Assembly (NCBI GenBank): GCA_035259575.1 | Contig: DATFWE010000042.1 | Span: forward strand, 4,882-68,881 | Direction of reading: 5' to 3' | DNA length: 64,000 bases | Source: Haliangiales bacterium | GTDB lineage: Bacteria; Myxococcota_A; Polyangia; Haliangiales; SHYZ01 | Part shown: piece by piece, positions 11,493 to 29,245 of the stretch | Position numbering within the stretch: position 1 is the first letter of the stretch | Layout of the letters: every line of letters starts with the position of its first letter | Notes under the pieces: model-generated | What the model was told of the DNA's origin: nothing | The model's database searches: none | Seen by the model: the letters and a program-made list of their open reading frames with translations, nothing else | Position numbers and translations under genes: made by a program

Positions 11493-11505
11493 CACGCGGG
11501 CATCT

Positions 11506-11522
11506 AGCAAGGAGGGTGCCGA
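11506..11522 (-). promoter_or_regulatory. Putative sigma54 -24/-12 promoter of the cco operon
   Basis: Minus strand TCGGCACCCTCCTTGCT (GG-N10-GC, close to TGGCAC-N5-TTGC). Confidence 0.7.
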
Positions 11523-11550
11523 CCGCCGCGCGCCCGGACCGGGGACGCGG

Positions 11551-11565
11551 GCGCAGTTTCTGCGC
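11551..11565. promoter_or_regulatory. Palindromic activator-type site
   Basis: GCGCAG-TTT-CTGCGC; a half site (GGAAG-AAT-CTGCG) lies 31 bp downstream at 11583-11595. Confidence 0.6.
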
Positions 11566-11614
11566 CCCCATCCCCGAGCCGGGGAAGAATCTGCGCGCTT
11601 TCCGACGACCTTCC

Positions 11615-11630
11615 GAGCACGCGACTTGCA
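11615..11630 (+). promoter_or_regulatory. Putative sigma54 promoter (non-canonical AG at -24)
   Basis: GAGCACGCGACTTGCA; ATG 11644 lies 15 nt after the -12 C. Confidence 0.5.
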
Positions 11631-11643
11631 GTCTGATCACGTC

Positions 11644-14273: not shown

Positions 14274-14304
14274 GGTCTTCGATGGCCATAAGGAGGTCGC
14301 AACC

Positions 14305-14652
14305 ATGAAGCGGCTGAGCGCCATGTTCTTCCTCTCGATGTCTCTCCTCGGTCCCGCCATCGCCTCGGCGGACGACGCCGCGACGAATCGCGTGTTCCGC
14401 GCCAAGTGCGCGTCCTGCCACGGCGAGGACGGCAAGGGACACACCAAGGAAGGCGAGAAGATGAAGGTAGGCGACATGACGTCGGCCGCGTTCCAGAAGG
14501 AGCTCACCGACGAGAAGATCAAGCAGACGATCGAAAACGGCCTGTCCCGCGAGAAGAACGGCGTCAAGCAGGAGATGAAGCCGCTCAAGGACAAGCTCAC
14601 GCCCGAGCAGATCGACGCGCTGGTCAAATACGTCCGCGGGCTGGCCAAGTAG
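14305..14652 (+). CDS. Secreted mono-heme class I cytochrome c
   Basis: AGGAGG SD, signal peptide, CASCH and distal Met (QEMKP). Confidence 0.92.
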   Translation: MKRLSAMFFLSMSLLGPAIASADDAATNRVFRAKCASCHGEDGKGHTKEGEKMKVGDMTSAAFQKELTDEKIKQTIENGLSREKNGVKQEMKPLKDKLTPEQIDALVKYVRGLAK

Positions 14653-14665
14653 CCGAGGCGCGCCC

Positions 14666-15124
14666 ATGAGCGATCACGCACCCGCGCCGGTGACGCGAAG
14701 GCGATTCCTCGACGCCCTTCTCGGCGCGGGGCTCGTCGGCTGGCTGGCCACGGTCCTTTACCCGGTGCTGCGTTATCTCAAGCCGCTCAGCTCGACCGGT
14801 CCGGGCGGACCGATCAAACTGTCGGCCGACGAGGCGACCAAGCTCGAGCGGGAACGCTACGTGATCGTGCGCGCCGGCACCAGCCGCGTCCTCGTCTTCG
14901 AAGATGCGGCTCAAGGCCTGCGCGCGCTGTCGGCGAAGTGCACCCACGAGGGGTGCACCGTGCAGTACGTCGCGGGCGAGTCGATCGTCCTGTGCGCGTG
15001 CCACAACGGCCGCTACGACCTCGACGGCCGCGTGCTCGCTGGGCCGCCGCCGCGCCCGCTCGCGCAGTACGAGGCGCAGCGCGACGCCGACGGCTCGATC
15101 CTCGTCAAGCTGGGGACGTCGTGA
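14666..15124 (+). CDS. Rieske 2Fe-2S subunit of a Rieske/cytochrome b complex
   Basis: Tat-like RRRFL plus TM helix; CTHEGC and CACHNG motifs. Confidence 0.93.
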   Translation: MSDHAPAPVTRRRFLDALLGAGLVGWLATVLYPVLRYLKPLSSTGPGGPIKLSADEATKLERERYVIVRAGTSRVLVFEDAAQGLRALSAKCTHEGCTVQYVAGESIVLCACHNGRYDLDGRVLAGPPPRPLAQYEAQRDADGSILVKLGTS

Positions 15125-18015
15125 GCGCACCGGAGCGCCGGCGCGGACGCCTCTTCCGCTGGCTGGACTCGCGCTACCAGCTCCAGCCCGTCGTGGACTT
15201 CCTCGAGCACAAGGAGGTGCCGGTCGGCGTCCACTCACTGATCTGGTACTACCTCGGCGGCACGACGCTGTTCTTCTTCGTCGTGCAGATCGCGTCGGGC
15301 GTGCTGCTCCTCATGTATTACCAGCCCGGCGAGGCCACGGCGTACGAGAGCATCCGCTACATCACCACGAAGGTGCCGTTCGGCTGGCTCATCCGCTCCG
15401 TCCACTGCTGGAGCGCGCACCTGATGATCGTCTCGCTGGTGGCGCACATGTTCTCGACGCTCATGCTCAAGGCCTACCGGCCGCCGCGCGAGCTGACCTG
15501 GGTCACCGGCTTTCTCCTGTTCGCCGTCGCGCTCGGCTTCGGCTTTTCCGGCTATCTCCTGCCGTGGAACGAGCTGTCGTTCTTCGCCACGTCGGTCGGC
15601 ACCGACTCGGTGAAGGAGATCCCGGTCATCGGCGACTGGTTGCTGCAGGTCCTGCGCGGGGGCACCGAGGTGAGCATCAACACGCTCTACCGCTTCTTCG
15701 GGCTGCACGTCGTCATCCTGCCGCTGGCGGCGTTCGCCATCATCGCCGTCCACCTCCTGTTCATCCAGCGCCAGGGCATGGCGCCGCCGGTCCATCCGCC
15801 GGCGACGCCGCGCGCGATGAAGTTCTTCCCCAACTTCGCGGTGCGCGATCTGCTGATCTGGCTCTTGTGCCTGGCGGCGCTGACCAGCCTCGCGGTGTTC
15901 CTGCCGTATGGCCCCGGCGTCCCCGGCGTGGAGTGGGAGCTCGGCAAGAAGGCCAACCCGCTCGCCCCGGCCTACCCGGGGATCAAGCCGGAGTGGTACT
16001 TCCTGTGGGTCTACCAGCTCCTCAAGGAGTTCCCGCCGCACCTGGTCGGCGGCCTGGAAGGCCCGCAGGCGGCGCTGCTGCTCGTCGGCGGGCTGCTCGT
16101 CGTGTGGGCGCTCATCCCGTGGCTCGACCGATCGGCGCGCCGCAACGAGCCCTCCCCGGCCTTCACCGACTTCGGCATGGCGGCGCTCCTGTTCATCGCG
16201 TTCCTGACGCTCAAGGCGTGGGACATCGGCGGGGGCGCAGGCAAGGTGCCGGACGCGCGGGCGGTCGCGTGGACGACGGCCTGGTACGCGCTCGGCGTGG
16301 CGCTCGTCTCGGTAGTCGTGCGCGCGGTCGTGTACCGGCATCGCTGGTTCCTGTTCACCGGGGCGTTCGCCGTCCACGTGGTGCTGCACGGTCTCGTCGG
16401 CCTGCCCTACCTCCTCGCCGGCGCCATCGGCATCGGCGTGCTCCTGGCGGCGCTGGGCGGCCTCAAGCTGCGCGGTCGCGGCGCCGTCGCGCTGCTCGTG
16501 GTCCTCGGCGCCGTCTCGGCGGCGCGCGCCGACGAGCCGCTGCCGCCTGCGCTGCAGAAGATGTTCGACGCCCGCCGGCCCGACGGCGCGCCCGTCATCC
16601 CGCCGGCGCAGCGAGAGTACTTCGCCAAGCTTCCCGATCGCGTGCGCGCCCTCGTCGCCGAAGCGGCCGACGCGACCATCCTCGGCTCGGCCGAGCACGC
16701 CCGCCGTCTGTTCGCGCTGAACCTTCCGCCGACGGCCTTCGAGCTCCTCATCAAGGACAACTGCATCGTCTGCCACACCGATCCAGGCAACGTCGAGGCG
16801 CGCACGCTCTTCTCCGCCGACCCCAAGGCCGACAAGTCGTCGCCGCGCCTCAACCTCAAGGAGTTCGCCAGCGACGTGCACTTCCGCCGCGGCGTGTCCT
16901 GCTCCGGCTGCCACGGCGGCTCGCCCACCGACCTCAACATGACCGACGCCATCGCCGAGCGGTGGCCGAGCGAGGAGGACCGCGCGAAGTCGCACGCCTG
17001 GATCCCGGCGTTCTGCGCGCGCTGCCACAGCGACGCCGCCTACATGCGCTCCTTCAACCAAGCCTTGCCCACCGACCAGCTCGCCAAGTACAAGACCAGC
17101 CGACACGGCCAGCGGCTCCTGGTCGAGGGCGACGACAAGGCGGCCCAGTGCGCGAGCTGCCACGGCGGGCACGGGATCCGCAGCGCGAAGAGCCCCAAGT
17201 CGATGGTCCACCCGCAGCGCGTTCCCGAGACGTGCGGCGCGTGCCACGCCGACGCCCGGTACATGGCCGGCGAGAAGACCGACCGCGGCGAGCCCCTGCC
17301 GACCAATCAGCTCGAACAGTACAGGAAGAGCGCGCACGGCAAGGCCCTCCTCGAGAAGGGCGATCTCGGCGCGCCGGCGTGCAACTCCTGCCACGGCAAT
17401 CACGCCGCGCAGCCGCCCGCCGTCGCCTCCGTGTCGGAAGTCTGCCGCGTTTGCCACGTCACGAACGGCCGGCTGTTCGACGGCTCGAAGCACAAGATCG
17501 CATTCGAGAAGCACGGCTGGCCGGAATGCGCCCAGTGTCATGGCAAGCACGACATCGCCAAGGCGAACGACGAGCTTCTCGCCGACGGGGCCGAGCGGCT
17601 GTGCCACGCTTGCCACGCCAAGGACGCGCCGGACAACAAGGAATGCGACGCCACGGCGAGCCATTTCCACGCGACCCTCGGCGAGCTGGCCGGGTCGATG
17701 ACGGCGTACACCGTCGAGGGCGAGGAGCTGGCGAAGAAGGGCCTCGACGTCGAGCCGCTCACGAACGTGCTCGGCGAGCTCGAGGAGTCGCTCGTCAAGG
17801 CGCGCGAAGGCATCCACAGCTTCGACAAGGACACGTTCGATCGCCTGGCGGATCCGGCGCGCGCGGCCGCGAAAAAGAGCCAGGAGCTCATCGACGCCTC
17901 GCGGAAGGAGTACCGCTTCCGGCAGGGCGGGCTCCTGGCGGCGATCGGTGCGATGTCGCTGCTCGCGCTCGGGATCTACCTCACGCTGCGGCGGATCGAG
18001 TCGCGGAAGCCCTGA
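15121..18015 (+). CDS. Cytochrome b (b6 + subunit IV-like) fused to a C-terminal 9-heme cytochrome c domain
   Basis: GTGA overlap with the Rieske gene; RSVHCWSAH, RPPRELTW, SGYLLPWN, FFGLHV, AVHL and KPEWYFL, then 9 CxxCH and a C-terminal TM helix. Confidence 0.9.
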   Translation: MSAPERRRGRLFRWLDSRYQLQPVVDFLEHKEVPVGVHSLIWYYLGGTTLFFFVVQIASGVLLLMYYQPGEATAYESIRYITTKVPFGWLIRSVHCWSAHLMIVSLVAHMFSTLMLKAYRPPRELTWVTGFLLFAVALGFGFSGYLLPWNELSFFATSVGTDSVKEIPVIGDWLLQVLRGGTEVSINTLYRFFGLHVVILPLAAFAIIAVHLLFIQRQGMAPPVHPPATPRAMKFFPNFAVRDLLIWLLCLAALTSLAVFLPYGPGVPGVEWELGKKANPLAPAYPGIKPEWYFLWVYQLLKEFPPHLVGGLEGPQAALLLVGGLLVVWALIPWLDRSARRNEPSPAFTDFGMAALLFIAFLTLKAWDIGGGAGKVPDARAVAWTTAWYALGVALVSVVVRAVVYRHRWFLFTGAFAVHVVLHGLVGLPYLLAGAIGIGVLLAALGGLKLRGRGAVALLVVLGAVSAARADEPLPPALQKMFDARRPDGAPVIPPAQREYFAKLPDRVRALVAEAADATILGSAEHARRLFALNLPPTAFELLIKDNCIVCHTDPGNVEARTLFSADPKADKSSPRLNLKEFASDVHFRRGVSCSGCHGGSPTDLNMTDAIAERWPSEEDRAKSHAWIPAFCARCHSDAAYMRSFNQALPTDQLAKYKTSRHGQRLLVEGDDKAAQCASCHGGHGIRSAKSPKSMVHPQRVPETCGACHADARYMAGEKTDRGEPLPTNQLEQYRKSAHGKALLEKGDLGAPACNSCHGNHAAQPPAVASVSEVCRVCHVTNGRLFDGSKHKIAFEKHGWPECAQCHGKHDIAKANDELLADGAERLCHACHAKDAPDNKECDATASHFHATLGELAGSMTAYTVEGEELAKKGLDVEPLTNVLGELEESLVKAREGIHSFDKDTFDRLADPARAAAKKSQELIDASRKEYRFRQGGLLAAIGAMSLLALGIYLTLRRIESRKP

Positions 18016-18034
18016 CGCGGGCGCGCCGGCGACA

Positions 18035-18077
18035 CGAATTTCTTGCGCGCATCGGCTCGGGGGACGCAATCGGTGCG
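18035..18077. promoter_or_regulatory. Pair of degenerate CGCAA-N3-TTGCG sites
   Basis: CGAAT-TTC-TTGCG (18035) and CGCAA-TCG-GTGCG (18065), 30 bp apart. Confidence 0.55.
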
Positions 18078-18197
18078 TCGCCGGGGCACGCGGGCCGCGC
18101 CCCATTGTCGTGCAGATATCTTTCCAGGCCCGCCAAGGCGGCGTCATTTGTTTCGAATGGGCGCTCGCGCGAACGGGCGTCATGCAAGTTTCTTTCA

Positions 18198-18213
18198 CGG
18201 CACGCTGGCTGCA
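18198..18213 (+). promoter_or_regulatory. Putative sigma54 promoter
   Basis: CGGCACGCTGGCTGCA; ATG 18227 lies 15 nt after the -12 C. Confidence 0.65.
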
Positions 18214-18226
18214 ACACCGACGAGCC

Positions 18227-19120
18227 ATGTCGACGCACGATCGGATCGCAACGAGTATCGCGCTCGCGTTCGGGTCCGCGGTGGCGTGGGTGGCGTGCGG
18301 GGGCGGTTCTTCGACGACCTCGCCGCCGGACGCCGCTCCGCCCGACGCGCGCCCGCCGGCGCCGGACGCCGCCCCACCCGACGCCAGCCCTCCGGATGCC
18401 CCGCCGCCCCCGACGCTGACGCTGTCGCTCGATCCCGCGCTCGACACCGACCCCGACACCGTGAAGGCGACGGCGATCACGGCGGCCGACTTGCTCGACA
18501 CGTCCGGCACGGCGGTCGCGCACGCGACTGTTGCGAACGACCAGGCGGTGTTCGCGATCGGCGCTCTCGCGCCAGGTGAGTTCTTCATCAAGGTGAACGG
18601 GGACGCCGACGATCTCGTGCCGACGCGCATCGACAACCCTGCGGCGAGCGTCGTCCAGCGAGTGGGACAGAAGCTGAGGGCAAGCTTGATCGGGCCGGAG
18701 AACAGCCCGGTGTACCGCGTGAACACCTATTCTGCCGGCCAGGGAGAGAGCCCGATCGTGAGATTCTCCGACGGCACGACGATCGCCGGCGAGCAGCCGT
18801 ACATCTTCATCACGCTCGCCCTGCCAAAGGTTGACATCAAGGTCCTGGGGACGGGGGCTCGCGTGAGCACCCTTTTGCCGGGCTCGCAGCTTCACCCGAG
18901 CACGCTCGTGCCCTTCGACGCCTGGATCCTGAACACCAGCGGCCAGCCGCACCACGGGGATGCCTACAACGCGGCGCCCTCATCGTGCAGCGGGTGCCAC
19001 ACGAAGCTCGACATGAAGCCGGCGAGCTATGCCGACATCACCGTCGCGAACGGCTGGTGCTTCCATTGCCACAATGGAACGGCGGGAGACGGCAGCGGCT
19101 TCGTCGATCCTACCCAGTAG
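18227..19120 (+). CDS. Di-heme c-type cytochrome lipoprotein of unknown function
   Basis: Lipobox-like WVAC, Pro/Asp-rich PDAAPP repeats, C-terminal CSGCH and CFHCH. Confidence 0.78.
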   Translation: MSTHDRIATSIALAFGSAVAWVACGGGSSTTSPPDAAPPDARPPAPDAAPPDASPPDAPPPPTLTLSLDPALDTDPDTVKATAITAADLLDTSGTAVAHATVANDQAVFAIGALAPGEFFIKVNGDADDLVPTRIDNPAASVVQRVGQKLRASLIGPENSPVYRVNTYSAGQGESPIVRFSDGTTIAGEQPYIFITLALPKVDIKVLGTGARVSTLLPGSQLHPSTLVPFDAWILNTSGQPHHGDAYNAAPSSCSGCHTKLDMKPASYADITVANGWCFHCHNGTAGDGSGFVDPTQ

Positions 19121-19172
19121 GAACGACGAAGAAGGGTGGAAAGCTGTGGGGGGAAGGGACGGCTCGCGCGGC

Positions 19173-22100
19173 TTACCTGTGCACCTCGGCGATGGCCGCC
19201 AGGCGGCCGGGGCCGTGGCAGAGCAGACACTGCTCCTTCGTGGCGCCCGGGGCGAGCACGACGCTGCGCGGCGCGTAGAAGTAGCCGCCCATCGCCTGCA
19301 TGTGGTCGATCGCCACGGGCGTGTCGTGGCACGCGGAGCAGGCCGCGACAATCGGCGACTTCACGAGCGTCGTGGGATCGGCCTCGCACGGCGCCGAGGT
19401 GGAGCACGTCTTGGCGGCCACACCGGTGCACGGAGCAGCGCTGGTGCACGTGCACGGAGCGGCCGCGGTGCAGTTGGTGCCGCCCTGCTTGCCCGAGGTG
19501 ACCCCGGTCACCGTGCACGGGTTGGCAAGGCTGCACGTGCACGGCGTCGCCGGCGTGCAGCTCTGGGTCCCCTGCGTGCCCGTTCGCCCGTCGGGAAGCG
19601 TCGTCGTGAGGTTGGTCGTGGCGAACCCGAGCCCGTAGTCGGTGAAGCCGTCCGCGATGACGTACGGCGAGATGGTGAACCAGCTCGCCGGATTCGTCGT
19701 CGCGTTGTTGTTGTATCGCCCCTTCGCGACTGTGCTCGGCAGCATGCTGGGCAGCGCGGCCATGCTCGTGGCGGAGCTGAAGTCGTAGTCGCCCGCGACG
19801 TGGCACGCCGTGCAGTTGTTGAGCGGCCCGGGGAACTCCACGTGGGAGAAGTTCTCGGTCGCCGACTCCGCGTGCCACGTGAACGCCACGGTGCGCTTGC
19901 GCGCGCCGTGGATCGCGTGGATGAAGTCCTTGGCGTTCCCGCCCCAGCCGCTGGTCGACTGGTTGGGGTTGTGACAGAACGAGCAGGTCGGCCCGTTGTT
20001 GCGCTGCCCGGCGTGGAACGTCGGCGCGGCGCCGAGCGTGACGTGACACTTGAGGCAATTTGCGTTGTCGATGATGACGTGGCGAGCCGTGTATCCCGTC
20101 GCCACCTTGTAGACGTCGGGCGCGGGGACGATCAGGCCGCCTTGCTTCTTGACGGTGTCGTACGGGAACGCGGGGAGATCGATCTCGGTCAGCGGGAACG
20201 CCGACACCAGGTTGTAGGTGTAGCCCACGCCGCCGGTGAGCTGCGCGGCGTTGTTCGGGATCACGACGTTGGGGAGGACGATGGTATAGAAGCCGGACGC
20301 GTCGGGTCCCGTCAGCGTGCCGGCGCCCGTTCCCGTCGCGGTGCCGTTCCAGATGTTCTTGATGTAGCCGCTGGCGGTCGCGTTGTAGTCCGCCGGTGCC
20401 GCGATGCCGTCCTGCGGCACGCTGAACGCGAAGTAGACGCTCGGCGAGCCGACGAAGCCGTCCATGAGCTCGGTGGCGCCGCCGCCGAACGTGGGGAAAG
20501 CGACGTTGCTGCCGTTCTTGAGCAGCTTGAACTTGATCGACGGGCGCTTGACCCCGCCGGCATCGGCGACGGCGTCGACGCTGCTGACGGCGTACGTGAT
20601 GACCGCCGCGCCTTCGGGGACCGCCCCCGCGGCCGCCAGGAATCCCGCGTTCGTGTTGGCGTTCGTGCCGCCATTCAAGATGTTGTTCGGGTCCGGGGGA
20701 GCGATCGGCACGTGGTATCTGCCGATGAGCGCCGGCGTGTGGCACGTGGCGCAGGCGCCGTCGGCGACTGCGCCGCCGGTGTGCTTGCACGGCACGTTCA
20801 AGCCCGTGCCGTCGACCGCGGGCGGATGGACGCACGTCGCGGCGGACGAGGCCGCGGCGAAGTCGACCTGGTCGTGGCACGACGTGCACGCGGCGAGGGT
20901 CGGACGACCCTTCGCCTGCGCGCCTTGCGCCGCGCCGTCGTGGCAGGCGCCGCAGTTGCGGATGTCCTGCGGATAGGTCGCAGCGACGCCGTGGAACACG
21001 TTCTGCGGCTGGAGCGACTCGCCGTTGTGGATGCGGTGCACGAACACCATGGCCTGCGCCGCGGGGTTCGAGACCCGGGCCGGGTTGTGGCACACGACGC
21101 AGTACCGCGCGTCGATGCGGCCGCTGTTGTGGAAGCTGCTCGAGGTCAAGCCCTCGGCGCTGAAGCCGCGGTGGCAGTTGTTGCAGCCCGCGGTCGACGC
21201 GATCTCCCGGTTGAGCGGCGTCCCGGTGGGGTTGTTCGGGATGTAATTGAAATACGTGTTCACCGCGTCGAAGCCCGCCGGGTCGAGCGTGTTGTCGAGG
21301 TTGGTCTGGCGGGAGGCCTCGATCCACACGACGTGCGTGTTCCCCAGCTTGCTCGCGTCGTACGCGACCGCCGTGAAGACGACGCCGTTCGGGGCGCCGG
21401 ACGTGTCGGTCTGCTGCACGTCGGCCGTGGGGAACGTGTAGGTGTACTCGCCGGACAAGGGAACGTCCTCGACGAGCAGTCCGACCGCGGGCGTCCTCGT
21501 CGTCGCGGTGGTCGTGGCGCTGGGGTTGTAGGCGGTCGGCTGGAACCTGGTCTGCGCCGACGCCGAGCTCGCCTGCGTGAGCACGGTGTTCGGCAGGACG
21601 TTCCCGTCGGGGTCCTTGGTGAGGTACGACAGCGAGAACCGCATCGCGATCGGCGTGTTCAGCGTGTAGATCCCGTTCTTGTCCACGGGGAAACCGCGCG
21701 AGTCCTTCATCGAGAACCGGACGGAGATTGCGCCGGACGCGTCGTCGCTGACGCCCTTGATGGCGATCGCCAGCCCGGTGCTCGTGGCCGAAGGGCCCGG
21801 GGTGCCGCCGCATACATACGTCGTCTGCGCGGGGTTCACCTCCGAGGGATCGAGGAGGCCGTTGCCGTTGGCATCGACGCCCATCTCGATCTTGACGCCG
21901 CCGGACGGGCAGTTCGGCCCGGGCGGCTCGGGGCTGGTTTTCACGAGCGTCGGCCGGCCGCTCGAGCCGTTGCAGATGTACGTCGTCTCCGACGCGTTGA
22001 CCTCGCCCGGATCGAGGACGCCGTTCATGTTCGCGTCCACGCCGGTCTCGAGCCTGGTGCCGCCGTTGGCGCAGTGCGCCCCCGGGGGCTCGGGCGTGGT

Positions 22101-22205
22101 CGCGACGAGCGCCGTGCCGCCGGTGTCGCCCGTGCAGCCGGCGAACAAGACCGCCGCGACCGCGCCGGCGAGCCGGATTCGTCCGATTCTGCTTGCGTTG
22201 TGCAT
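19173..22205 (-). CDS. OmcA/MtrC-family decaheme cytochrome lipoprotein with N-terminal tandem repeats
   Basis: GGAGG SD before ATG 22205; lipobox LFAGC; 10 CxxCH in a 5+5 arrangement separated by a beta-rich domain; FVHRIH and FIHAIH distal-His motifs. Confidence 0.88.
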   Translation of the reverse strand: MHNASRIGRIRLAGAVAAVLFAGCTGDTGGTALVATTPEPPGAHCANGGTRLETGVDANMNGVLDPGEVNASETTYICNGSSGRPTLVKTSPEPPGPNCPSGGVKIEMGVDANGNGLLDPSEVNPAQTTYVCGGTPGPSATSTGLAIAIKGVSDDASGAISVRFSMKDSRGFPVDKNGIYTLNTPIAMRFSLSYLTKDPDGNVLPNTVLTQASSASAQTRFQPTAYNPSATTTATTRTPAVGLLVEDVPLSGEYTYTFPTADVQQTDTSGAPNGVVFTAVAYDASKLGNTHVVWIEASRQTNLDNTLDPAGFDAVNTYFNYIPNNPTGTPLNREIASTAGCNNCHRGFSAEGLTSSSFHNSGRIDARYCVVCHNPARVSNPAAQAMVFVHRIHNGESLQPQNVFHGVAATYPQDIRNCGACHDGAAQGAQAKGRPTLAACTSCHDQVDFAAASSAATCVHPPAVDGTGLNVPCKHTGGAVADGACATCHTPALIGRYHVPIAPPDPNNILNGGTNANTNAGFLAAAGAVPEGAAVITYAVSSVDAVADAGGVKRPSIKFKLLKNGSNVAFPTFGGGATELMDGFVGSPSVYFAFSVPQDGIAAPADYNATASGYIKNIWNGTATGTGAGTLTGPDASGFYTIVLPNVVIPNNAAQLTGGVGYTYNLVSAFPLTEIDLPAFPYDTVKKQGGLIVPAPDVYKVATGYTARHVIIDNANCLKCHVTLGAAPTFHAGQRNNGPTCSFCHNPNQSTSGWGGNAKDFIHAIHGARKRTVAFTWHAESATENFSHVEFPGPLNNCTACHVAGDYDFSSATSMAALPSMLPSTVAKGRYNNNATTNPASWFTISPYVIADGFTDYGLGFATTNLTTTLPDGRTGTQGTQSCTPATPCTCSLANPCTVTGVTSGKQGGTNCTAAAPCTCTSAAPCTGVAAKTCSTSAPCEADPTTLVKSPIVAACSACHDTPVAIDHMQAMGGYFYAPRSVVLAPGATKEQCLLCHGPGRLAAIAEVHR

Positions 22206-22242
22206 CACGTCCTCCATCAAGCCGTTCGTACCGACCCGGCCG

Positions 22243-23322
22243 TCAGAAATGACAGGTCGTGCACATCCCGTTGCTGCGGATCTCCGAGTGGTCGTGGTGC
22301 GAAAGCCACGACGCGGGATGTGGGTTGCCGCCGATCCCGCCGACGCGGTGGCAGCTCACGCAGTTGGATCGCGGGCCCTGGTCGTGGCACGACGCGCAGC
22401 TCGCGATGTCGCGCCGCGCCGCCTCGCCATGGAAATCCCCCGATCCCGGGATGGTCCACCCGAGCGGATGCGGATCACGCGGATTTTGCGCGGTCGGCGT
22501 CAAATTCTGGGCCTGATGACAGCTCGTGCAGAAATCGTTCCCATGGCACTTGCGGCAGGAGGCCTCGTTGCCGGCGGCCTCGATCGAGTGCCGTCCGAGG
22601 AAGTCATTGCGGTGGATGAAGGACGCGTCGACCGACTCGGGGAACTTGACCTCGACCCGGGTCGCCACGGTCCGGGCGTGGCAGTCCGCGCAGTACGTCT
22701 GGTCGTGGCACTGCGCGCAGTTCCCGGCGGAGCTGCGCGCGTCGGCGCCGTGGCGCGCGATGTAATTGCCCTGGTGCGAGAAATCGGACAGGGGCTTGAG
22801 CGCGATGCGGTTCAGCGTCGGATGGCACCCCGTGCACTGGGTCTGCGCGTACTCCTGCGCGTGCTCGTGGCAGCCCAGGCAGTCGCTCATCTTGGGCACG
22901 GTGTCCACCGCTGCGAACGGCTCCGGGAGCCGCTGGTGACAAGTCGAGCAGTCCTCCTTGACGCGCTCGATGTGCTTCTGGTGGCTCATCTTCACCAGGC
23001 CCTCGGCGAGCGTGCGCTTCGCGGCGTGCTGGACGTCCGTGTGGCAGAAGCTGCAGTTGTTCTTTTCCTTCTGCTCCTTGTGGCACTGGAGGCACGTGTC
23101 TTCCGGGGGCAGCGCCTCGGGCGCGGTGCCGAGCGCGGTCTCGTCGAACACGCCCTCGTGGCAGGCGATGCACTTGACGTCGTTCTTGGCGTGGATCTCG
23201 TGCGGAGCGCGGATCCGATCGCTGGGCGGGTCGGCCGGCGTCGTCCGCGGCGACGCGGGCCAGCACGAGACGAGGGCGCCGCCGGCGGCGGCGAGCGCGA
23301 CGAGGGCAAGCGCCTTCCTCAC
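22243..23322 (-). CDS. 13-heme cytochrome c3-like lipoprotein
   Basis: GTG 23322 overlaps the upstream stop; lipobox LVSC; 13 CxxCH with PHEIH and SHQKH c3-type distal His pairs. Confidence 0.9.
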   Translation of the reverse strand: MRKALALVALAAAGGALVSCWPASPRTTPADPPSDRIRAPHEIHAKNDVKCIACHEGVFDETALGTAPEALPPEDTCLQCHKEQKEKNNCSFCHTDVQHAAKRTLAEGLVKMSHQKHIERVKEDCSTCHQRLPEPFAAVDTVPKMSDCLGCHEHAQEYAQTQCTGCHPTLNRIALKPLSDFSHQGNYIARHGADARSSAGNCAQCHDQTYCADCHARTVATRVEVKFPESVDASFIHRNDFLGRHSIEAAGNEASCRKCHGNDFCTSCHQAQNLTPTAQNPRDPHPLGWTIPGSGDFHGEAARRDIASCASCHDQGPRSNCVSCHRVGGIGGNPHPASWLSHHDHSEIRSNGMCTTCHF

Positions 23323-24584
23323 GGCGTCACCTTCTTCGCGCGGTAGTCGAAGTTGTAGACCAGCTTCGCCATCGCCTCGGTGCGCCACTCGAGCAGCGGC
23401 GTCCGCCCGGTCAAGCCGCTCACGAGGCCCCTCCACCCGGGCGCGAAGTCCCAGCCGACCGTCGCGGCGAACGTCAGCGACAGGTTCTCGCCGTTGATCC
23501 GCGGGTCGAGCCACACCGCGTCGCAATCGAGGGTCGCCGTGACGTCGCGGCCGAACCGGTGCAACCCGTAGATGCGGCCCTGGACGTAGCGGCTGGCCGG
23601 CAGCGCGAGGACGCGCCCCTGGACGCCGATCTGAGTCATGTCCGCCCCGTCGACGGCGAGCGATGCGCGCAGCCCGGCGCGCCCGCCGGTGCCGGAGTCG
23701 TCGTGGAGCACGAAGCCGTCCCCCCACAGGCGAAGGCGCGCCCACGGCCGGAAGTACACCGTCGCCCCGCCCTCCTCGCGCGCCTCCTCGGCGAACACGG
23801 AGAAGATCGACGCCCGCGATACGAACAGATCCGGCGCGGTGCGCGCCGCCTCGGCCGTGACCTCGAGGTTGCGCAGCGGCTGCCACAGCGCGCGCAGCGA
23901 CGCCTCGCTGATCCTCTGCTCGAGGATGCTGAACGCCGCGAGCGCGGTCAACGTGACCTCTTCCGTCACGACCGCGCGCGCGTCGACGCCGGCCTCCTGG
24001 CGATCGACCAAGCCGTCGTCGAGGATGTCCACGAACGAGAGGCCGCCCTCGAAGATCGGCGACGGCCGCCACGACAGGCGCCCGCCGATCACGCCCTGAC
24101 CGTGGGCGTAGCCGAAACGCGGCGGCACGGGAACGCCGCCGTAGATCTGGACACGGATGCCCGCGGGGGCGAGCGCGACGACGTCGGCACCGTCGAGCTG
24201 AAGGTTGCGCGCGACGCCCGAGGCGACGAGCTGGCGCCCGAGACGCACGCCCAGGTGACGATCGAACAGCTTGCCCTCGATGAACGCGACGTCGACGTCG
24301 CCGGTGACGTTGCGGTCGTCCAACGTGGTGCCGCCGGCGACCATGCCCCACCCGGACACGACGATGCGCGTCCCGTGGACTCCCGGGATGTCGACGTCGC
24401 GCGCCGAGAGCCAGATTTCCTCGTACGCGGGTACGACCGTGTGCACCGTGCCGTCGCGTGGGTCCTGGCGCCCGGCGAGGAGCGTCAGAGCGGTCGCGTC
24501 GACGGTCTGCCCGTGCACGAGCACCGGCAGGCCCACGCCGACGGCCGCCACGATCGCGCTAGTTCTGAACGTCGACCATTCCAT
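23319..24584 (-). CDS. Putative outer-membrane beta-barrel (porin of a porin-cytochrome conduit)
   Basis: Signal peptide, no hemes, many alternating amphipathic strands (GVDARAVV, LEVTAEAAR, LTFAATVGWDF, AMAKLVYNF); coupled between two multiheme genes. Confidence 0.68.
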   Translation of the reverse strand: MEWSTFRTSAIVAAVGVGLPVLVHGQTVDATALTLLAGRQDPRDGTVHTVVPAYEEIWLSARDVDIPGVHGTRIVVSGWGMVAGGTTLDDRNVTGDVDVAFIEGKLFDRHLGVRLGRQLVASGVARNLQLDGADVVALAPAGIRVQIYGGVPVPPRFGYAHGQGVIGGRLSWRPSPIFEGGLSFVDILDDGLVDRQEAGVDARAVVTEEVTLTALAAFSILEQRISEASLRALWQPLRNLEVTAEAARTAPDLFVSRASIFSVFAEEAREEGGATVYFRPWARLRLWGDGFVLHDDSGTGGRAGLRASLAVDGADMTQIGVQGRVLALPASRYVQGRIYGLHRFGRDVTATLDCDAVWLDPRINGENLSLTFAATVGWDFAPGWRGLVSGLTGRTPLLEWRTEAMAKLVYNFDYRAKKVTP

Positions 24585-25980
24585 TGATGTGGGCTCCGCC
24601 AACCTTGATGGCGCCGCCGGGCAAGACCGTCCCGGAGTGACACTGCACACAGTCCGACAGCTTCAGGCTCGGGTCATGGGCGTCCGTCGGCGGTGGGATG
24701 CCGTGGCACGAGCCGCAGGCGATCGTGCCCACCCCGCCGCCCCACACCGGCCGCACCGCCCCGTGGCACCATACGTTGTTGCAGGTCTGCGCCTGCGCAT
24801 CCCACGCCGGCTGGGTTTTGCCGCCGCCCGTGGCGCGCACGCCGGTCATGGCGACGGTCGCCTCCTGCGTGAGGTGCCCGGGCGCATCGACGCTCGCGGG
24901 GACCGTGTGGCAGTCGCCGCACGCCACGGGCGCGGACAAAAGGTGCAGCGCGTCCGTGTGCGCGAGGTGGCTGCCCGTCGCGGGCGGCTGGCCGTGACAG
25001 CTCGTGCACACATCGGCGCCGACGCCGAAGTCGATGCTGCCGTTGACGTGCTTGCTCGCGTCGCGGACGTGGCGCTCGGCGTCGACGACCGCCGAATGGC
25101 AATCGACGCAGCGACCGCCGGTGTTGTGATGGCCGCTCGGCGGCAGCCCGTGGCACGTGCCGCACGCCGCCTGGTCGGGGCCGCCGGTCCACTTCGGCGC
25201 GGTCCGCGTCGCCGCCGCGTCCGTGAACGCGCCCCCGTGACAGTAGACGCCCGAACAGGTCCGGGCGGGCTGATCGTAGGTCGGCGTCGCCGACATCGCG
25301 AATGCCAGGGCGCCGAAGTGTATCGTCGCCGGTCCGGTGTGGAGGTGGCCGGCCTCGGTCACGACCGCCGGCTTCAGGTGGCACGCGGTGCAGTCGAGCG
25401 CCGCGCCGATGCCTCCCGAGACGTGGGCCAGGTGCGACCCGGTGGATGGCGGCTGCCCGTGACAGCCCGTGCACGATGTCAGCCCGCCGGAGTGGCAGGT
25501 CGCGCACCCGACGCCCGAGGTGCCGCCGGCGAAGTCGCTGCCGTGGCATTTCGCGCACAGGGTGAGGTCCCAGTTGAACACCTGGCCGACGACCGTGCCG
25601 TGGAACGTCGGATCGCTCGGATTCATCAGGCCCGGGCCATGGACGGGCGACGTCTCGTAGCCCAGGTCATCGTCGACGACCCAGGTCCGCAGCAGCGCGA
25701 ACGTGGTCGCGAACGGCGCGTGCGTCGCGTCGCTCCCGATGGCGATGAGGACGGACGTCGCGTCGCCGGCGCGGGCGCGCGCGATGACCTGAAAATAGTC
25801 GTCCGTCCGGAAGCCGGCCGCCGGCTCGCTCCCGGTGTGGCAGGAGCCGCACTTGTCGGCGAGCGCGGGCGCGACGTCCTTCTTCCACGTCAATCCCTGT
25901 CGCCGCACACCCGGCTCGAGGGTTTGCGGCGTGGCGCAACCCACGGCGAGGCCGACGGCCATGGCGGCGACTGCGCGCAT
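24559..25980 (-). CDS. 13-heme CxxxxCH/CxxCH-domain cytochrome lipoprotein
   Basis: Lipobox LAVGC; 11 CxxCH plus CSGVYCH and CNNVWCH; two internally repeated modules. Confidence 0.9.
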   Translation of the reverse strand: MRAVAAMAVGLAVGCATPQTLEPGVRRQGLTWKKDVAPALADKCGSCHTGSEPAAGFRTDDYFQVIARARAGDATSVLIAIGSDATHAPFATTFALLRTWVVDDDLGYETSPVHGPGLMNPSDPTFHGTVVGQVFNWDLTLCAKCHGSDFAGGTSGVGCATCHSGGLTSCTGCHGQPPSTGSHLAHVSGGIGAALDCTACHLKPAVVTEAGHLHTGPATIHFGALAFAMSATPTYDQPARTCSGVYCHGGAFTDAAATRTAPKWTGGPDQAACGTCHGLPPSGHHNTGGRCVDCHSAVVDAERHVRDASKHVNGSIDFGVGADVCTSCHGQPPATGSHLAHTDALHLLSAPVACGDCHTVPASVDAPGHLTQEATVAMTGVRATGGGKTQPAWDAQAQTCNNVWCHGAVRPVWGGGVGTIACGSCHGIPPPTDAHDPSLKLSDCVQCHSGTVLPGGAIKVGGAHINGMVDVQN

Positions 25981-25983
25981 GGC

Positions 25984-26322
25984 TCACTTGCCGGCGAACG
26001 ACCGCATGTACTTCACCAGGTCCTCAATCTGGTCGGGCTTGAGCTTCGCCTTGTAGGCGTCCATCTGCTGCTTCTTGCCGTCCTTGGTCCGGTCGAGCCC
26101 GTCCTCGATCGCCTTCTGGATGGCCTCGTCGGTGAACTCCTTCTGCCACGCGGGGGCGGTCGCGTCGCGGACGCCCATCTCCTTGCCCTTGGTGGTTTGC
26201 CCCTTGCCGTCGTCGCCGTGGCACGACGCGCACTTCGCCTTCCAGGTGCGCTCGGTCTTGTCCGCCCGAGCGGCGGTCGCGAGAGCCATGATGCAGAACA
26301 ACGCGGTGCAAACCGTACGCAT
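25984..26322 (-). CDS. Secreted mono-heme cytochrome c (paralog of 14305..14652)
   Basis: AAAGGAG SD, signal peptide, KAKCASCHGDDGKG and QQM distal Met. Confidence 0.92.
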   Translation of the reverse strand: MRTVCTALFCIMALATAARADKTERTWKAKCASCHGDDGKGQTTKGKEMGVRDATAPAWQKEFTDEAIQKAIEDGLDRTKDGKKQQMDAYKAKLKPDQIEDLVKYMRSFAGK

Positions 26323-26324
26323 GA

Positions 26325-26543
26325 TCACTCCTTTGCCCGGGGAGGGGCCGCCGCCTCGTCCGGCCGACCCCAAACGAGCCAATAGAGGTAGAGGAGAAGG
26401 CCGATGCCGAGCGCTGCTCCGCCGACCGTCGCGAACGCGATGAACGACAGCGGGTGCGACCAGAACAGGGTGACGAGCTCGACGACGAGCGCCACCATCA
26501 CGAGCGCACACGCGAGGCGCAGCAGCAGCGACGACCGGCTCAT
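26325..26543 (-). CDS. Small two-TM membrane protein (72 aa)
   Basis: ATGA overlap with the NapC-like stop; MSRSSLLLRLACALVMVALVVELVTLFWSHPLSFIAFATVGG... Confidence 0.72.
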   Translation of the reverse strand: MSRSSLLLRLACALVMVALVVELVTLFWSHPLSFIAFATVGGAALGIGLLLYLYWLVWGRPDEAAAPPRAKE

Positions 26544-27160
26544 TCCTTGTCCTCCGTCGGTCCGGACCACAGCTTGAGCTTGGCGAGCTCATCGACGGCA
26601 TGGACGTTGGGGTGGCAGCTCTGCGACAGACACGACAGCTCGTTGCTCTGGATGCGCGCGCGTTCCTTCTTGTGTTCCGACGTATCCTCGAAACCGCGCG
26701 TGCCGTCGTGGCAGTGCAGGCACTCGCGATTGTTGTACGGCGTGTAGAGCTTGATTTGCTCGGGCACGGTGCCGAGGTAGGCCACCCACACGTGCTGCAG
26801 GCCCTTGAGCTTGGCGTGGAGGTCGCCGTAGAGCGTGTACGTCGTGTGGCAGGCGAAACATGCCGTTTGGCGCGGCACGCGGGAATTCTGAACATGGGCC
26901 GCAGGGAGGTATCGGGGATCGTCGATGGTTAGGCTCTTCCCGTACTTCTCCATCGCGTGGCAGGACGTGCAGTAGGCGACCGTCTTCGAGTGCTCGATGT
27001 GCGTGCTCGTCCCCATGAACACGATGAACAACGGAAACACCATGATCGAGACGAAGCCGAACAGCTTGCCGATGCCGTGGGTCAAGACCTGCGGTCGCGC
27101 GACGCCCACGAAGAGGAGGGCGATTGCGACGAGGATGCTCGCAACAGGTAGGATCCCCAT
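26540..27160 (-). CDS. NapC/NirT (CymA-like) membrane-anchored tetraheme quinol dehydrogenase
   Basis: N-terminal TM helices; YCTSCHAM, CFACH, AKLKGLQHV, CLHCH and a last heme as CLSQSCH. Confidence 0.85.
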   Translation of the reverse strand: MGILPVASILVAIALLFVGVARPQVLTHGIGKLFGFVSIMVFPLFIVFMGTSTHIEHSKTVAYCTSCHAMEKYGKSLTIDDPRYLPAAHVQNSRVPRQTACFACHTTYTLYGDLHAKLKGLQHVWVAYLGTVPEQIKLYTPYNNRECLHCHDGTRGFEDTSEHKKERARIQSNELSCLSQSCHPNVHAVDELAKLKLWSGPTEDKE

Positions 27161-27179
27161 ATGGACACCCGCCCAGCCC

Positions 27180-27196
27180 AGCAACCTGCTTGCCAA
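27180..27196 (-). promoter_or_regulatory. Putative sigma54 promoter of the multiheme operon
   Basis: Minus strand TTGGCAAGCAGGTTGCT. Confidence 0.72.
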
Positions 27197-27235
27197 CCTG
27201 GGCCCGGTTTTTGGCGGGTCTCTGGCAGTCTTTCC

Positions 27236-27278
27236 CGCAAATCCTGCGTTTCAGGGCGGCCGAGGCGCGAAAACTGCG
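27236..27278. promoter_or_regulatory. Pair of CGCAA-N3-CTGCG-type sites
   Basis: CGCAA-ATC-CTGCG (27236) and CGCGA-AAA-CTGCG (27266), 30 bp apart. Confidence 0.62.
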
Positions 27279-27282
27279 TGGG

Positions 27283-27774
27283 TCAGACGGACGATGAGGC
27301 CAGCTCCGCGTTGATGCGGGCGGCCACGTCCTCGACGAAGCGCAGGACGGCGGCCTCGGCCACCCGATGCAAGAGGAGGGCGTCGAGGGCGGTCCCGACC
27401 GGCCCAAGCGGGGGACGGTATGCCCCGTAAAGCTCGATCTGGGTCTCGTGGCGCGACAGCGGATAGAGGCGCAGCGAGGCCTCCATCGACGGGAAGAAGC
27501 CGCCGGCGCGCGCGGCCGTCCACGCGATGTCGATCCGAGCCGTCCGGTCCCCGAGGACGCCGACCTCCTCGGACCGGGAGACGACCCGGATGCTCACCGG
27601 CACGCCGACCTCGAGAGGGCCGAGCTTCACGCGCAGCGTCGCTCCGACCTCGTCGGCCCGCACCGAGGCCGCGCGGGTGGCGCGCTGGAACAACCCGGCG
27701 GCGTCGCCGTCGAGGAGCGCGCACACGCGCTCGTAGGAGGCGGTCACGTACTCGTAGCAGCGCAGCTCGATCAT
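27283..27774 (-). CDS. Hypothetical protein, possible START/SRPBCC-like fold
   Basis: C-terminal part of track ORF 27283..29229, coupled to the hemN stop (MIELRCYEYV..FFPSMEASLRLYPL..YRPPLGPVG..ALLLHRVAEA). Confidence 0.6.
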   Translation of the reverse strand: MIELRCYEYVTASYERVCALLDGDAAGLFQRATRAASVRADEVGATLRVKLGPLEVGVPVSIRVVSRSEEVGVLGDRTARIDIAWTAARAGGFFPSMEASLRLYPLSRHETQIELYGAYRPPLGPVGTALDALLLHRVAEAAVLRFVEDVAARINAELASSSV

Positions 27775-29135
27775 CACACCGTCCTCGAGAAAACGGGTCG
27801 GCGGGCGTCCCCGTGCCCGCGATACGCGTCGAACGCCATCGACACGTTGCGGACGAAGACCCGACCGAGCGGAGTGAGCCGGATGTCGCCGCCGTCGATG
27901 ACGCACAGACCGTCGTCCGCGAGCGCGCGCAGGCGCTCGAGCTCGGGGGCAAATGCGTCGAGCTCGTCGGCCGCGAGCGTCGCGCGGAGGTTGCACATGA
28001 GGTTGCCGATGATCGCCCGCCGCCGCTCGTCGTCGGGGCTGCGCACCCAGCCCCGCTCCACCGGCAGGAGGCCGGCGTCCAGCATGGCCGCGTAGCGCGG
28101 CAGCGTCTTGACGTTCTGCAGGTAGGCGCCGCCGACGTCGCCGATGCCGCTGACGCCGAGCGCGATCGTGCCGGCGCCCCCGCGTCCGGCGGAATAGCCC
28201 TGGAAGTCGCGCCACAACCGCCCCTCCGCGCGGGCGCGCGCGAGCTCGTCGTCGGGCAGCGCGAAGTGATCCATGCCGATGGCGACGTAGCCGGCGTCGA
28301 TGAGGGCGTCGTGGGCCAGGCGAAACAGCGCGAGCTTGGCCGCGCCGGTCGGGAGCTCCGCCACCGGCAGGCGGCGCTGGTGCGGTTTCACCGTCGGGAC
28401 GTACGCGAACGAAAAGAGCGAGATGCGGTCGGGGCGGATCGCCGCGATGCGCTCGATCGTCCGCCGCCATGACGGGGGCGTCTGGCGCGGCAGGCCGTAG
28501 ATGAGGTCGAGGTTGACGCTGCGCAACCCGAGCGAGCGCGCCCCGTCGACCGCCGCGCGCGTCTCCTCCTCCGTCTGGATGCGCGCGATCGCCCGTTGCA
28601 CGTCCTCGTCGAGGTCCTGGACGCCCATGGAGATGCGCCGGAAACCCAGGCGCGCGAGGAGCTCGAGCTGCGTCGTCCGGGTGACCGCGGGGTCGACCTC
28701 GACGGCTAGCTCGGCGTCGGGAAGGATGTCGAACGCGCCGGCGAGGATCGCGTGGAGCTCGGCGAGCTGCCGCTCGTCGAGGAACGTCGGCGTCCCCCCG
28801 CCGAGGTGGACGCGCGAAATCGCCTTCCGCCCGCCGAGGGCGGCCCGCACCAGCGCCGCCTCCTTTCGCACCAGGGCGAGATAGTCGTCGCCCTTCGCTT
28901 GGTTCTTGGTGACGATGACGTGGCACCCGCAGTACGAGCACATCTCGCGGCAGAACGGGATGTGCACGTAGAGCGACAGGGGCTCGGCGCCAGCGCGGGC
29001 GAGCGCCGCCTCGGCCTCGTGCGGGCCGAGGGCGCGCCAGTCCACCGCGGTGGGGTAGCTCGTATAGCGCGGCCCCGGGACGTCGAGTCGACGCGTCATC
29101 TCGTCGGAGAGCGCCGGGAAGTGCGCGTCGGTCAT
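27774..29135 (-). CDS. hemN: Oxygen-independent coproporphyrinogen III oxidase
   Basis: GPRYTSYPT, LSLYVHIPFCREMCSYCGC, HLGGGTP, MDHFAL and RDFQGY motifs. Confidence 0.95.
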   Translation of the reverse strand: MTDAHFPALSDEMTRRLDVPGPRYTSYPTAVDWRALGPHEAEAALARAGAEPLSLYVHIPFCREMCSYCGCHVIVTKNQAKGDDYLALVRKEAALVRAALGGRKAISRVHLGGGTPTFLDERQLAELHAILAGAFDILPDAELAVEVDPAVTRTTQLELLARLGFRRISMGVQDLDEDVQRAIARIQTEEETRAAVDGARSLGLRSVNLDLIYGLPRQTPPSWRRTIERIAAIRPDRISLFSFAYVPTVKPHQRRLPVAELPTGAAKLALFRLAHDALIDAGYVAIGMDHFALPDDELARARAEGRLWRDFQGYSAGRGGAGTIALGVSGIGDVGGAYLQNVKTLPRYAAMLDAGLLPVERGWVRSPDDERRRAIIGNLMCNLRATLAADELDAFAPELERLRALADDGLCVIDGGDIRLTPLGRVFVRNVSMAFDAYRGHGDARRPVFSRTV

Positions 29136-29147
29136 GCGACCGGTTCG

Positions 29148-29163
29148 TGCAAGCCCGAGGCCA
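29148..29163 (-). promoter_or_regulatory. Putative sigma54 promoter of hemN
   Basis: Minus strand TGGCCTCGGGCTTGCA; ATG 29135 lies 14 nt after the -12 C. Confidence 0.7.
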
Positions 29164-29193
29164 CGCCTTTCCTCGACTCGGGGCGCCGGCGGG

Positions 29194-29237
29194 CGCACAG
29201 CTTGCGCGACGGCCGCGCAAAACCCGCAAAAGCTGCG
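29194..29237. promoter_or_regulatory. Pair of CGCA-N5-TGCG palindromic sites
   Basis: CGCAC-AGC-TTGCG (29194) and CGCAA-AAG-CTGCG (29225), 31 bp apart. Confidence 0.62.
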
Positions 29238-29245
29238 CGGTCCCG

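Follow-up and report, generated by a model that had tools for sequence, protein, structure and literature searches.

Seven consecutive genes run from position 27160 to 19173 on the minus strand of a 64,000-nucleotide (nt) stretch of DNA (hereafter the window) taken from contig DATFWE010000042.1 of a Haliangiales bacterium (assembly GCA_035259575.1). Between them they carry 41 heme-binding motifs within 8 kb, and they include two 13-heme lipoproteins, a heme-free β-barrel and a decaheme lipoprotein of the OmcA/MtrC family. Cytochromes of this last family are the textbook terminal reductases of Shewanella and are treated as co-evolving parts of MtrCAB. In Myxococcota the MtrC family was found in approximately one fifth of the genomes sampled, almost never with MtrB; it is tied, statistically and physically, to an undescribed barrel family that is accompanied by two 13-heme lipoproteins. 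This phylum-wide decoupling of the MtrC family from MtrAB, together with the barrel family itself, forms the main interest of the locus. The source assembly comprises 6.8 Mb in 363 contigs (92% complete, approximately 71% G+C), and the sequence was found in soil metagenomes. The genes, delimited by third-position G+C analysis and stop-to-stop translations, are as follows (sizes in amino acids, aa).

g1, 26540-27160, minus strand: NapC/NirT-like membrane tetraheme cytochrome, 206 aa; proposed quinol dehydrogenase
g2, 26325-26543, minus strand: small membrane protein with two hydrophobic helices, 72 aa; conserved partner of g1
g3, 25984-26322, minus strand: secreted class I monoheme cytochrome c, 112 aa; proposed periplasmic shuttle
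g4, 24559-25980, minus strand: 13-heme CxxxxCH lipoprotein, 473 aa; proposed outer-face cytochrome of the complex
g5, 23319-24584, minus strand: heme-free predicted outer-membrane β-barrel, 421 aa; proposed sheath for the heme wire
g6, 22243-23322, minus strand: 13-heme c7-repeat lipoprotein, 359 aa; proposed trans-barrel wire, functional counterpart of MtrA/OmaB
g7, 19173-22217, minus strand: OmcA/MtrC-family decaheme lipoprotein, 1014 aa; proposed terminal surface reductase

Organization of the gene cluster

All seven reading frames are intact, and the third-position G+C content of the five larger genes is 0.84-0.93. The g2 start lies on the g1 stop in a 4-nt overlap (ATGA), gaps of 2 and 3 nt separate g2 from g3 and g3 from g4, g4 and g5 overlap by 26 nt, g5 and g6 overlap by 4 nt (GTGA), and a gap of 25 nt precedes g7. 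An original prediction, made from the letters of the window, had given this gene order and these positions, and translations and family searches place all seven genes accordingly; it had also described the stops and starts as mostly overlapping or nearly adjacent, which agrees with junctions ranging from a 26-nt overlap to a 25-nt gap. The g1/g2 and g2/g3 junctions are both covered by contigs that come from another study and another sample. Because these independent contigs cover the g1-g2-g3 junctions and relatives keep the order from g3 to g7, the arrangement is neither an assembly artefact nor the result of chance. Contigs of the probable source run end at 26707-26737, inside g1, where the local word depth is two to four times higher; the likely cause is a short sequence in common with related strains or paralogues.

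The barrel and its two 13-heme partners

The g5 protein contains no heme motif, and sequence and profile searches found no relative of it in Pfam, NCBIfam or the PDB, MtrB included. An AlphaFold2 model built from a 48-sequence alignment (mean predicted local distance difference test score, pLDDT, 89.1; predicted template-modelling score, pTM, 0.77) consists almost entirely of strand. Its signal helix is followed by 23 DSSP strand segments, two of which constitute one kinked strand, hence approximately 22 strands; one short helix is left, the loops are all short, and the 421 aa hold no plug-sized insert. A Foldseek search with the model returned only outer-membrane barrels, the 24-strand ushers FimD and PapC at the top (template-modelling score TMq 0.53) and Occ/OprD porins thereafter, and MtrB was not among the first 50 matches. 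The earlier assignment of the barrel as an outer-membrane protein is consistent with these results. A barrel of such size without a plug must be occupied in the cell. Homologues of g5 keep a plain Sec signal, whereas those of g4, g6 and g7 keep a lipobox cysteine. The family comprises 107 strong homologues (E value 1e-41 or better), all from metagenomes or metagenome-assembled genomes, and those with a named source are labelled Polyangia; source names among homologues of the cluster as a whole are Polyangia, Myxococcales or similar. In the literature we found no paper describing this barrel family or its link to MtrC-type cytochromes.

In nearly every related locus that has sufficient flanking sequence, the gene for g6 comes immediately after that for the barrel, and the 4-nt overlap of the two genes recurs in two of these loci (L023 and L025; related loci are numbered with the prefix L throughout). 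The g6 protein carries 13 CxxCH motifs, matches c7/c3-type models and has the lipobox LVSC; its 13 motifs, 12 further histidines and lipobox Cys20 are invariant among 40 homologues. A profile of these homologues has as its best match in the PDB the dodecaheme cytochrome GSU1996 (3OV0; E value 4.6e-21), while the match to MtrA (6R2Q_A) reaches an E value of only 0.0097; against the nanowire_3heme model g6 scores 21 bits, under the cut-off of 40 bits.

The heme sites of g4 comprise 11 CxxCH motifs together with CSGVYCH and CNNVWCH, giving 13. The protein matches the Geobacter-defined CxxxxCH/CxxCH domain TIGR01904 in two stretches (80.2 bits, cut-off 27) and PF09698 (35.9 bits, cut-off 21.7), and a single-sequence search of the PDB with it gave nothing useful. 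The cysteine of its lipobox (LAVGC) is retained in homologues across approximately 25 loci, and its gene is kept beside the barrel/g6 pair in most related loci. The two partner cytochromes had been called Geobacter-style, and this description holds: g4 is of the Geobacter CxxxxCH/CxxCH type, and g6 is a c7-repeat protein whose nearest solved relative is GSU1996, not MtrA.

The terminal decaheme cytochrome

As predicted originally, g7 is a bona fide member of the MtrC/OmcA family by the curated model TIGR03507, which it matches over positions 5-672 of 672 with 305.4 bits (cut-off 209.3), a result with which a scan of the genome agrees; PF22113, the MtrC/MtrF domain II/IV family, matches in three stretches (140 bits). 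In this genome it is the sole gene of the OmcA/MtrC family. Its ten CxxCH motifs are arranged as 5+5 (residues 345, 373, 422, 444 and 489, and residues 721, 745, 802, 960 and 997), with heme-free segments at residues 150-335 and 500-715, and its lipobox (LFAGC, Cys28) is conserved in homologues. The C-x8-C disulfide pair found in domain III of the Shewanella proteins occurs nowhere in g7. The similarity to the solved MtrC sequence is weak (E value 8e-5 in a single-sequence PDB search), so g7 is a distant member of the family. Between hemes 8 and 9 lies a His-free, Cys-rich insert (19386-19562, residues 886-944) with approximately ten cysteines in C-T/S-x-x-x-P-C-like repeats, which the homologue in L005 (46% identical) shares.

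The N-terminal stalk of g7 consists of two DUF7151 domains. The corresponding place in distant Myxococcota lipoproteins of the MtrC family, behind the lipobox and ahead of the cytochrome, is taken by collagen triple-helix repeats (PF01391, above cut-off), as in L028 (752 aa) and L031 (718 aa) and also in L029, L030 and L032-L034. This substitution points to an exchangeable stalk in MtrC-family proteins, possibly with trimeric display, and a variable N-terminal stalk would fit a g7 displayed at the cell surface.

The stalks bear on a reading of the cluster as a periplasmic or inner-leaflet cytochrome network. On this reading the barrel would let in a soluble acceptor (for example a chelated metal, a metalloid or a quinone-like shuttle) as any ordinary solute channel does, and the acceptor would be reduced inside by the three lipoprotein cytochromes, all of them turned towards the periplasm. 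In its favour, each of the three large cytochromes is a lipoprotein, bacterial lipoproteins go by default to the periplasmic face, and the structural neighbours of the barrel include Occ/OprD-type substrate porins. A plug-less 22-strand barrel, however, would be far wider than specific solute channels and leaky if empty, and the translational coupling and nearly constant adjacency of the barrel and g6 genes suggest a stoichiometric complex. Moreover, the MtrC/OmcA-family proteins of Shewanella are lipoproteins and yet surface-exposed (Shi et al., 2014, PMC4245776), and stalks of collagen or DUF7151 make little sense in a narrow periplasm. We consider a network of this kind rather improbable.

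Absence of MtrA and MtrB and distribution in Myxococcota

No match to MtrB (PF11854) was found in the 6.8-Mb, 92%-complete genome. For the MtrA/DmsE model TIGR03508, whose cut-off is 192 bits, the best genome match reaches 33 bits and lies elsewhere than on g6. The original prediction had noted no MtrA/MtrB-like sequence at the locus, and the same is now seen for the genome. Because MtrB was not found and MtrA not above cut-off, the system is, judged by its sequences, not an Mtr system.

A 12-sequence barrel alignment fetched 18 genome loci, in which the core g4-g5-g6 recurs; g3 is often present, g1 occurs in L002 and L003, and L005 alone has a clear homologue of g7. The g4-barrel-g6 trio is conserved in most of approximately 30 loci. 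The set g3-g4-g5-g6-g7, with a DUF7151-MtrC protein, is found in two closer relatives whose barrels are 69-75% identical. More distant Myxococcota (25-38% identity) show the same five modules in varying order, three genomes having MtrC-g4-NapC-barrel-g6, and MtrC-like and NapC-like genes join the trio in L028, L029, L031, L032, L033 and L034. The hybrid architecture that had been attributed to the cluster is present, and it is a recurrent design in Myxococcota, not peculiar to this genome. The description as a 'complete' single-operon conduit holds for the tight packing of the seven genes but not for the seven-gene form as a conserved unit, the two closer relatives being without a NapC-like gene.

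One of these relatives (L023, barrel 75% identical) lacks the NapC-like gene and g2. Just upstream of its monoheme gene there is a 44-aa open reading frame (ORF; 8118-8252) that is similar to residues 1-29 of g1 (59% identity, E value 6e-10) and is an apparent deletion remnant of g1, from which the seven-gene form looks ancestral in the clade.

For the phylum, an even sample of 401 Myxococcota genomes from 255 genera was surveyed. The barrel family was found in 79 genomes (42 genera) and the OmcA/MtrC family in 85 (78 of them above cut-off; 58 genera). Both occur together in 49 genomes (odds ratio 13, Fisher p 9e-20) and in 29 genera (odds ratio 14, p 1e-12), by tests that ignore phylogeny at either level. 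The MtrC family is present in approximately 60% of the barrel-bearing genomes, and in at least 15 genomes the two genes lie less than 12 kb apart on one contig. MtrB/PioB-type barrels were found in 22 of the 401 genomes, in none of the 79 barrel-positive ones and, as a weak match, in one of the 85 that are MtrC-positive. In Myxococcota the MtrC family therefore goes with the new barrel module and not with MtrAB.

Seen across the phylum, MtrB/PioB-type barrels (22 genomes) and the OmcA/MtrC family (85) are almost mutually exclusive. According to a survey preprint, novel multiheme clusters are numerous in Myxococcota and are accompanied by MtrC hits (bioRxiv 10.1101/2022.03.26.485925).

The proposed entry genes

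g1 matches PF03264 (NapC/NirT) with 35.5 bits against the Pfam cut-off of 24.1. Among the NCBIfam equivalogs its best score is to NrfH (36.6 bits, cut-off 134), followed by NapC/NirT (29.9, cut-off 310) and NapC (27.2, cut-off 349). Since it passes the Pfam threshold yet falls far under every equivalog cut-off, g1 belongs to a separate NapC/NirT subfamily. Its four heme sites are CTSCHAM, CFACH, CLHCH and CLSQSCH. The prediction of a NapC/NirT-like protein is right in the family; the four sites are three CxxCH and one CxxxxCH, not four CxxCH. The first site of the subfamily is of the NrfH-like CxxCHxM form, and homologues (24-52% identity) keep both the CX4CH fourth site and the two N-terminal hydrophobic helices; the fourth site (26627-26647, residues 177-183) reads C-[LVAG]-[SK]-x-[SG]-C-H in all aligned homologues. 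An alternative GTG start at 27109, which would leave a single helix, was rejected, since residues 2-8 onward are conserved in homologues.

The g2 protein has no meaningful family match in Pfam or NCBIfam. A small two-helix gene resembling it follows the NapC-like gene in L002, L027, L029, L031 and L033. g3 matches PF00034 (44 bits) and PF13442 (41.7 bits) and has a single CASCH motif and a Sec-type signal ending in ARA-D; its homologue adjoins the module in L002-L005, L007, L009, L011, L012, L023 and L025.

Comparison with known conduits

The core of the Geobacter-type porin-cytochrome (Pcc) clusters consists of a porin of 18-22 strands, a cytochrome of 5-14 hemes encoded beside the porin gene and a lipoprotein cytochrome on the outer side (Shi et al., 2014, PMC4245776). 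The porin is invariably paired with its 'periplasmic' cytochrome and the two co-evolve, whereas the outer cytochromes are interchangeable and show no co-evolution with the porin pair; atypical CX3-15CH motifs are reported only in the outer-membrane cytochromes of Pcc clusters and not in the periplasmic ones; and the Anaeromyxobacter clusters are two-gene units of a porin and a 12-heme cytochrome (338-344 aa) with no outer cytochrome (PMC4245776).

The present system resembles a Pcc in its operational features. It shares with OmbB-OmaB-OmcB a barrel and an adjacent heme-dense cytochrome, to which g4, as a putatively outer CX3-15CH lipoprotein, would add the third part of the core; as is frequent in Pcc clusters, extra inner-membrane and periplasmic cytochromes are attached. 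With approximately 22 strands, 421 aa and a Sec signal, g5 falls within the 18-22 strands of the Pcc porins and is likewise smaller than MtrB. The adjacent cytochrome would be g6, whose 13 hemes in 359 aa compare with the 12 hemes in 338-344 aa of the inner cytochrome of Anaeromyxobacter and whose gene overlaps the barrel gene stop by 4 nt. g4 resembles the outer cytochrome in being a lipoprotein with two CX4CH sites, its side of the membrane being only proposed. The differences are the invariant lipobox of g6 and the attached OmcA/MtrC-family decaheme, which is not reported for Pcc clusters.

The MtrCAB/OmcA system of Shewanella (6R2Q) has a terminal protein of the same family (TIGR03507), with 5+5 hemes, two heme-free domains and a lipoprotein anchor, and it follows the same logic of a NapC/NirT quinol dehydrogenase, a cytochrome inside a barrel and a surface decaheme. 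It differs in its 26-strand MtrB (PF11854) and in MtrA (TIGR03508), both absent here; g5 is much smaller, the wire would be the 13-heme c7-repeat g6 instead of the decaheme MtrA, with a second 13-heme cytochrome interposed, and g7 adds the DUF7151 stalk and the Cys-rich insert and is without the C-x8-C pair. In Shewanella, CymA is encoded apart from mtrCAB and the periplasmic partner is the decaheme MtrA. The contrast that the original prediction drew with this arrangement stands as far as the absence of MtrA and MtrB is concerned, but its novelty was overstated, for cymA-containing Mtr clusters are known from Rhodoferax ferrireducens, where mtrABC lies with two cymA and mtrH in one cluster (PMC6295460). 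Because these clusters already join a quinol dehydrogenase to a conduit, encoding the route in a single operon is in itself nothing new. In the mto clusters, too, CymA and MtoD are associated with Mtr (PMC4245776). The Rhodoferax and MtoAB-MtoD-CymA clusters are thus alike in including a NapC/NirT gene (and, in Mto, a monoheme cytochrome c as well); they differ in having genuine homologues of MtrA and MtrB, and g1 differs from their CymA types in its separate subfamily, two N-terminal helices, CX4CH fourth site and dedicated small membrane partner. GSU1996 of Geobacter sulfurreducens, the closest solved relative of the g6 family, resembles g6 in its c7-type units and bis-His hemes, but it is a soluble periplasmic protein without an adjacent barrel gene, whereas g6 has 13 hemes and a lipobox.

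Operon signals and neighbouring genes

The features around the cluster are the following.

27180..27195, minus strand: sigma-54-like -24/-12 element, TGGCAAGCAGGTTGCT, 20-35 nt upstream of the g1 ATG; candidate operon promoter
27283-27774, minus strand: 163-aa gene without assignment, directly upstream of the operon; overlaps hemN in ATGA
27774-29135, minus strand: hemN, oxygen-independent coproporphyrinogen oxidase with radical SAM and HemN_C domains; upstream of the operon, same strand
14290-19120, plus strand: Rieske/cytochrome b operon, convergent with the cluster (monoheme cytochrome c, Rieske protein, cytochrome b fusion, two-heme gene)
9171-11636, minus strand: P-type ATPase with a metal-binding domain, adjoining the cbb3 oxidase
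6003-9104, minus strand: cbb3-type oxidase (fused CcoN-CcoO, 6720-9104; CcoP, 6003-6719)

We infer co-transcription of the seven genes from their tight packing. The candidate promoter is the single match to TGGCA-N6-TTGCW in the 64 kb (0.05 expected; 5 of 100 shuffles hold one), and L029, a distant locus, has a match to TGGCA-N6-TTGC approximately 100 nt ahead of its NapC-like gene. No sigma-70-like sites were found in 18000-29500. Within the operon the coding strand showed no terminator-like sites, and no hairpin was found after g7 (z-score +1.7), two negatives that are uninformative at 71% G+C. The position of hemN, with its oxygen-independent step of heme synthesis, directly upstream and on the same strand hints at anaerobic use of the operon.

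In the convergent operon the Rieske ORF lies at 14579-15124, a bc-type cytochrome b fused to a nine-heme c domain ends at 18015, and a two-heme gene then ends at 19120. A homologue of the cytochrome b-multiheme protein adjoins the barrel module in L004, L005, L009, L011, L012 and L027, and this neighbour recurs in 5 of the 18 loci fetched by the barrel alignment.

Proposed electron pathway

The seven genes, as one operon, probably encode a Pcc-like porin-cytochrome conduit that would move respiratory electrons out of the menaquinol pool and onto extracellular acceptors, for instance Fe(III)/Mn(IV) oxides or humic substances. In the scheme that we propose, g1, with its small membrane partner g2, would oxidize quinol at the inner membrane, and the soluble monoheme cytochrome g3, the long g6, or both, would ferry electrons across the periplasm. 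Being related to the approximately 12-nm 'nanowire' GSU1996, g6 may be threaded into the plug-less 22-strand g5; this position in the barrel is suggested by gene adjacency in nearly all related loci and by translational coupling, matching the Pcc pairing rule (PMC4245776). On the outer face g6 would meet g4, which we place there because CX3-15CH sites occur in the outer and not in the periplasmic cytochromes of Pcc clusters (PMC4245776). g4 would in turn feed g7, held off the surface by its two DUF7151 domains, and g7 would reduce the acceptor, acting as OmcA does in Shewanella, as an accessory family member. The surface exposure of g7 and the direction of electron flow are both what we infer from sequence.

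Several observations count against this outward conduit. The AlphaFold2 model of g6, built from a 40-sequence alignment, is poor (pLDDT 61, pTM 0.36) and supports no elongated MtrA-like shape, and Foldseek gave a single non-significant match with it. The lipobox of g6 is invariant, whereas the classical 'periplasmic cytochrome' of Mtr and Pcc systems is without one, and the inside/outside placement of g4 and g6 could for this reason be reversed. The adjacent Rieske/cytochrome b-nonaheme complex could be an alternative or even the main quinol oxidase feeding the conduit, and the cbb3 oxidase in the same window would equally suit an inward flow of electrons to oxygen. The co-occurrence of barrel and MtrC family was assessed without regard to phylogeny. 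Finally, the absence of the NapC-like gene from both closer relatives makes g1 dispensable or redundant, and among the RNA runs searched for the window none contains it.

The last two points would also suit a set of neighbours without a common function, or a decaying and unexpressed cluster. We regard this as highly improbable, since all seven frames are intact with a strong coding signal, the heme motifs and distal histidines of g6 are invariant across 40 homologues, and the gene set recurs in many genera.

The cbb3 oxidase leads to another alternative, namely that the same hardware runs inward, drawing electrons from a partner cell, from reduced humics or from Fe(II)/Mn(II) outside the cell and passing them via the monoheme cytochrome c to the cbb3 oxidase, or in reverse via the NapC-like or cytochrome b complexes to the quinone pool, as in MtoAB-MtoD-CymA of iron oxidizers. 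Multiheme conduits are reversible in principle, the cbb3-type oxidase (6003-9104) and the Rieske/cytochrome b operon both lie within 15 kb, and a monoheme cytochrome c and a NapC-like gene beside a porin-cytochrome pair mirror the mto clusters (PMC4245776). Known oxidizing systems, however, are without an MtrC-type surface cytochrome (PMC4245776; bioRxiv 10.1101/2022.03.26.485925), whereas this cluster has a stalked one; the Myxococcota genomes with a real MtrB (MtoAB/PioAB-like) form a different set from those with the MtrC family; and hemN, for oxygen-independent heme synthesis, stands directly upstream. Inward operation accordingly appears unlikely to us, and the outward Pcc-like conduit remains our preferred reading.

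A possible docking platform for MtrC-type cytochromes

A bolder proposal, which we hold only tentatively and think somewhat less likely to be right than wrong, is that Myxococcota possess a third structural class of outer-membrane conduit. In it a 22-strand barrel, of a family without described relatives, would hold a 26-heme wire of two lipoproteins (g6 and g4) and serve as the general MtrC/OmcA docking platform of the phylum in place of MtrAB, and the decaheme would be carried on an exchangeable stalk, collagen implying trimers, that perhaps reaches through thick myxobacterial exopolysaccharide. If the conduit works in the way proposed above, MtrC-type modules would be portable between unrelated trans-membrane wires, and many uncultured soil myxobacteria would gain a concrete route for metal or humic respiration, one that escapes hidden Markov model surveys in which mtrCAB is sought as a unit. 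The operon, compact with its 41 hemes in 8 kb, would also be usable for the heterologous wiring of cells to electrodes. Thirty-six of the MtrC-positive genomes carry the family without a g5-type barrel, and these may use yet another partner.

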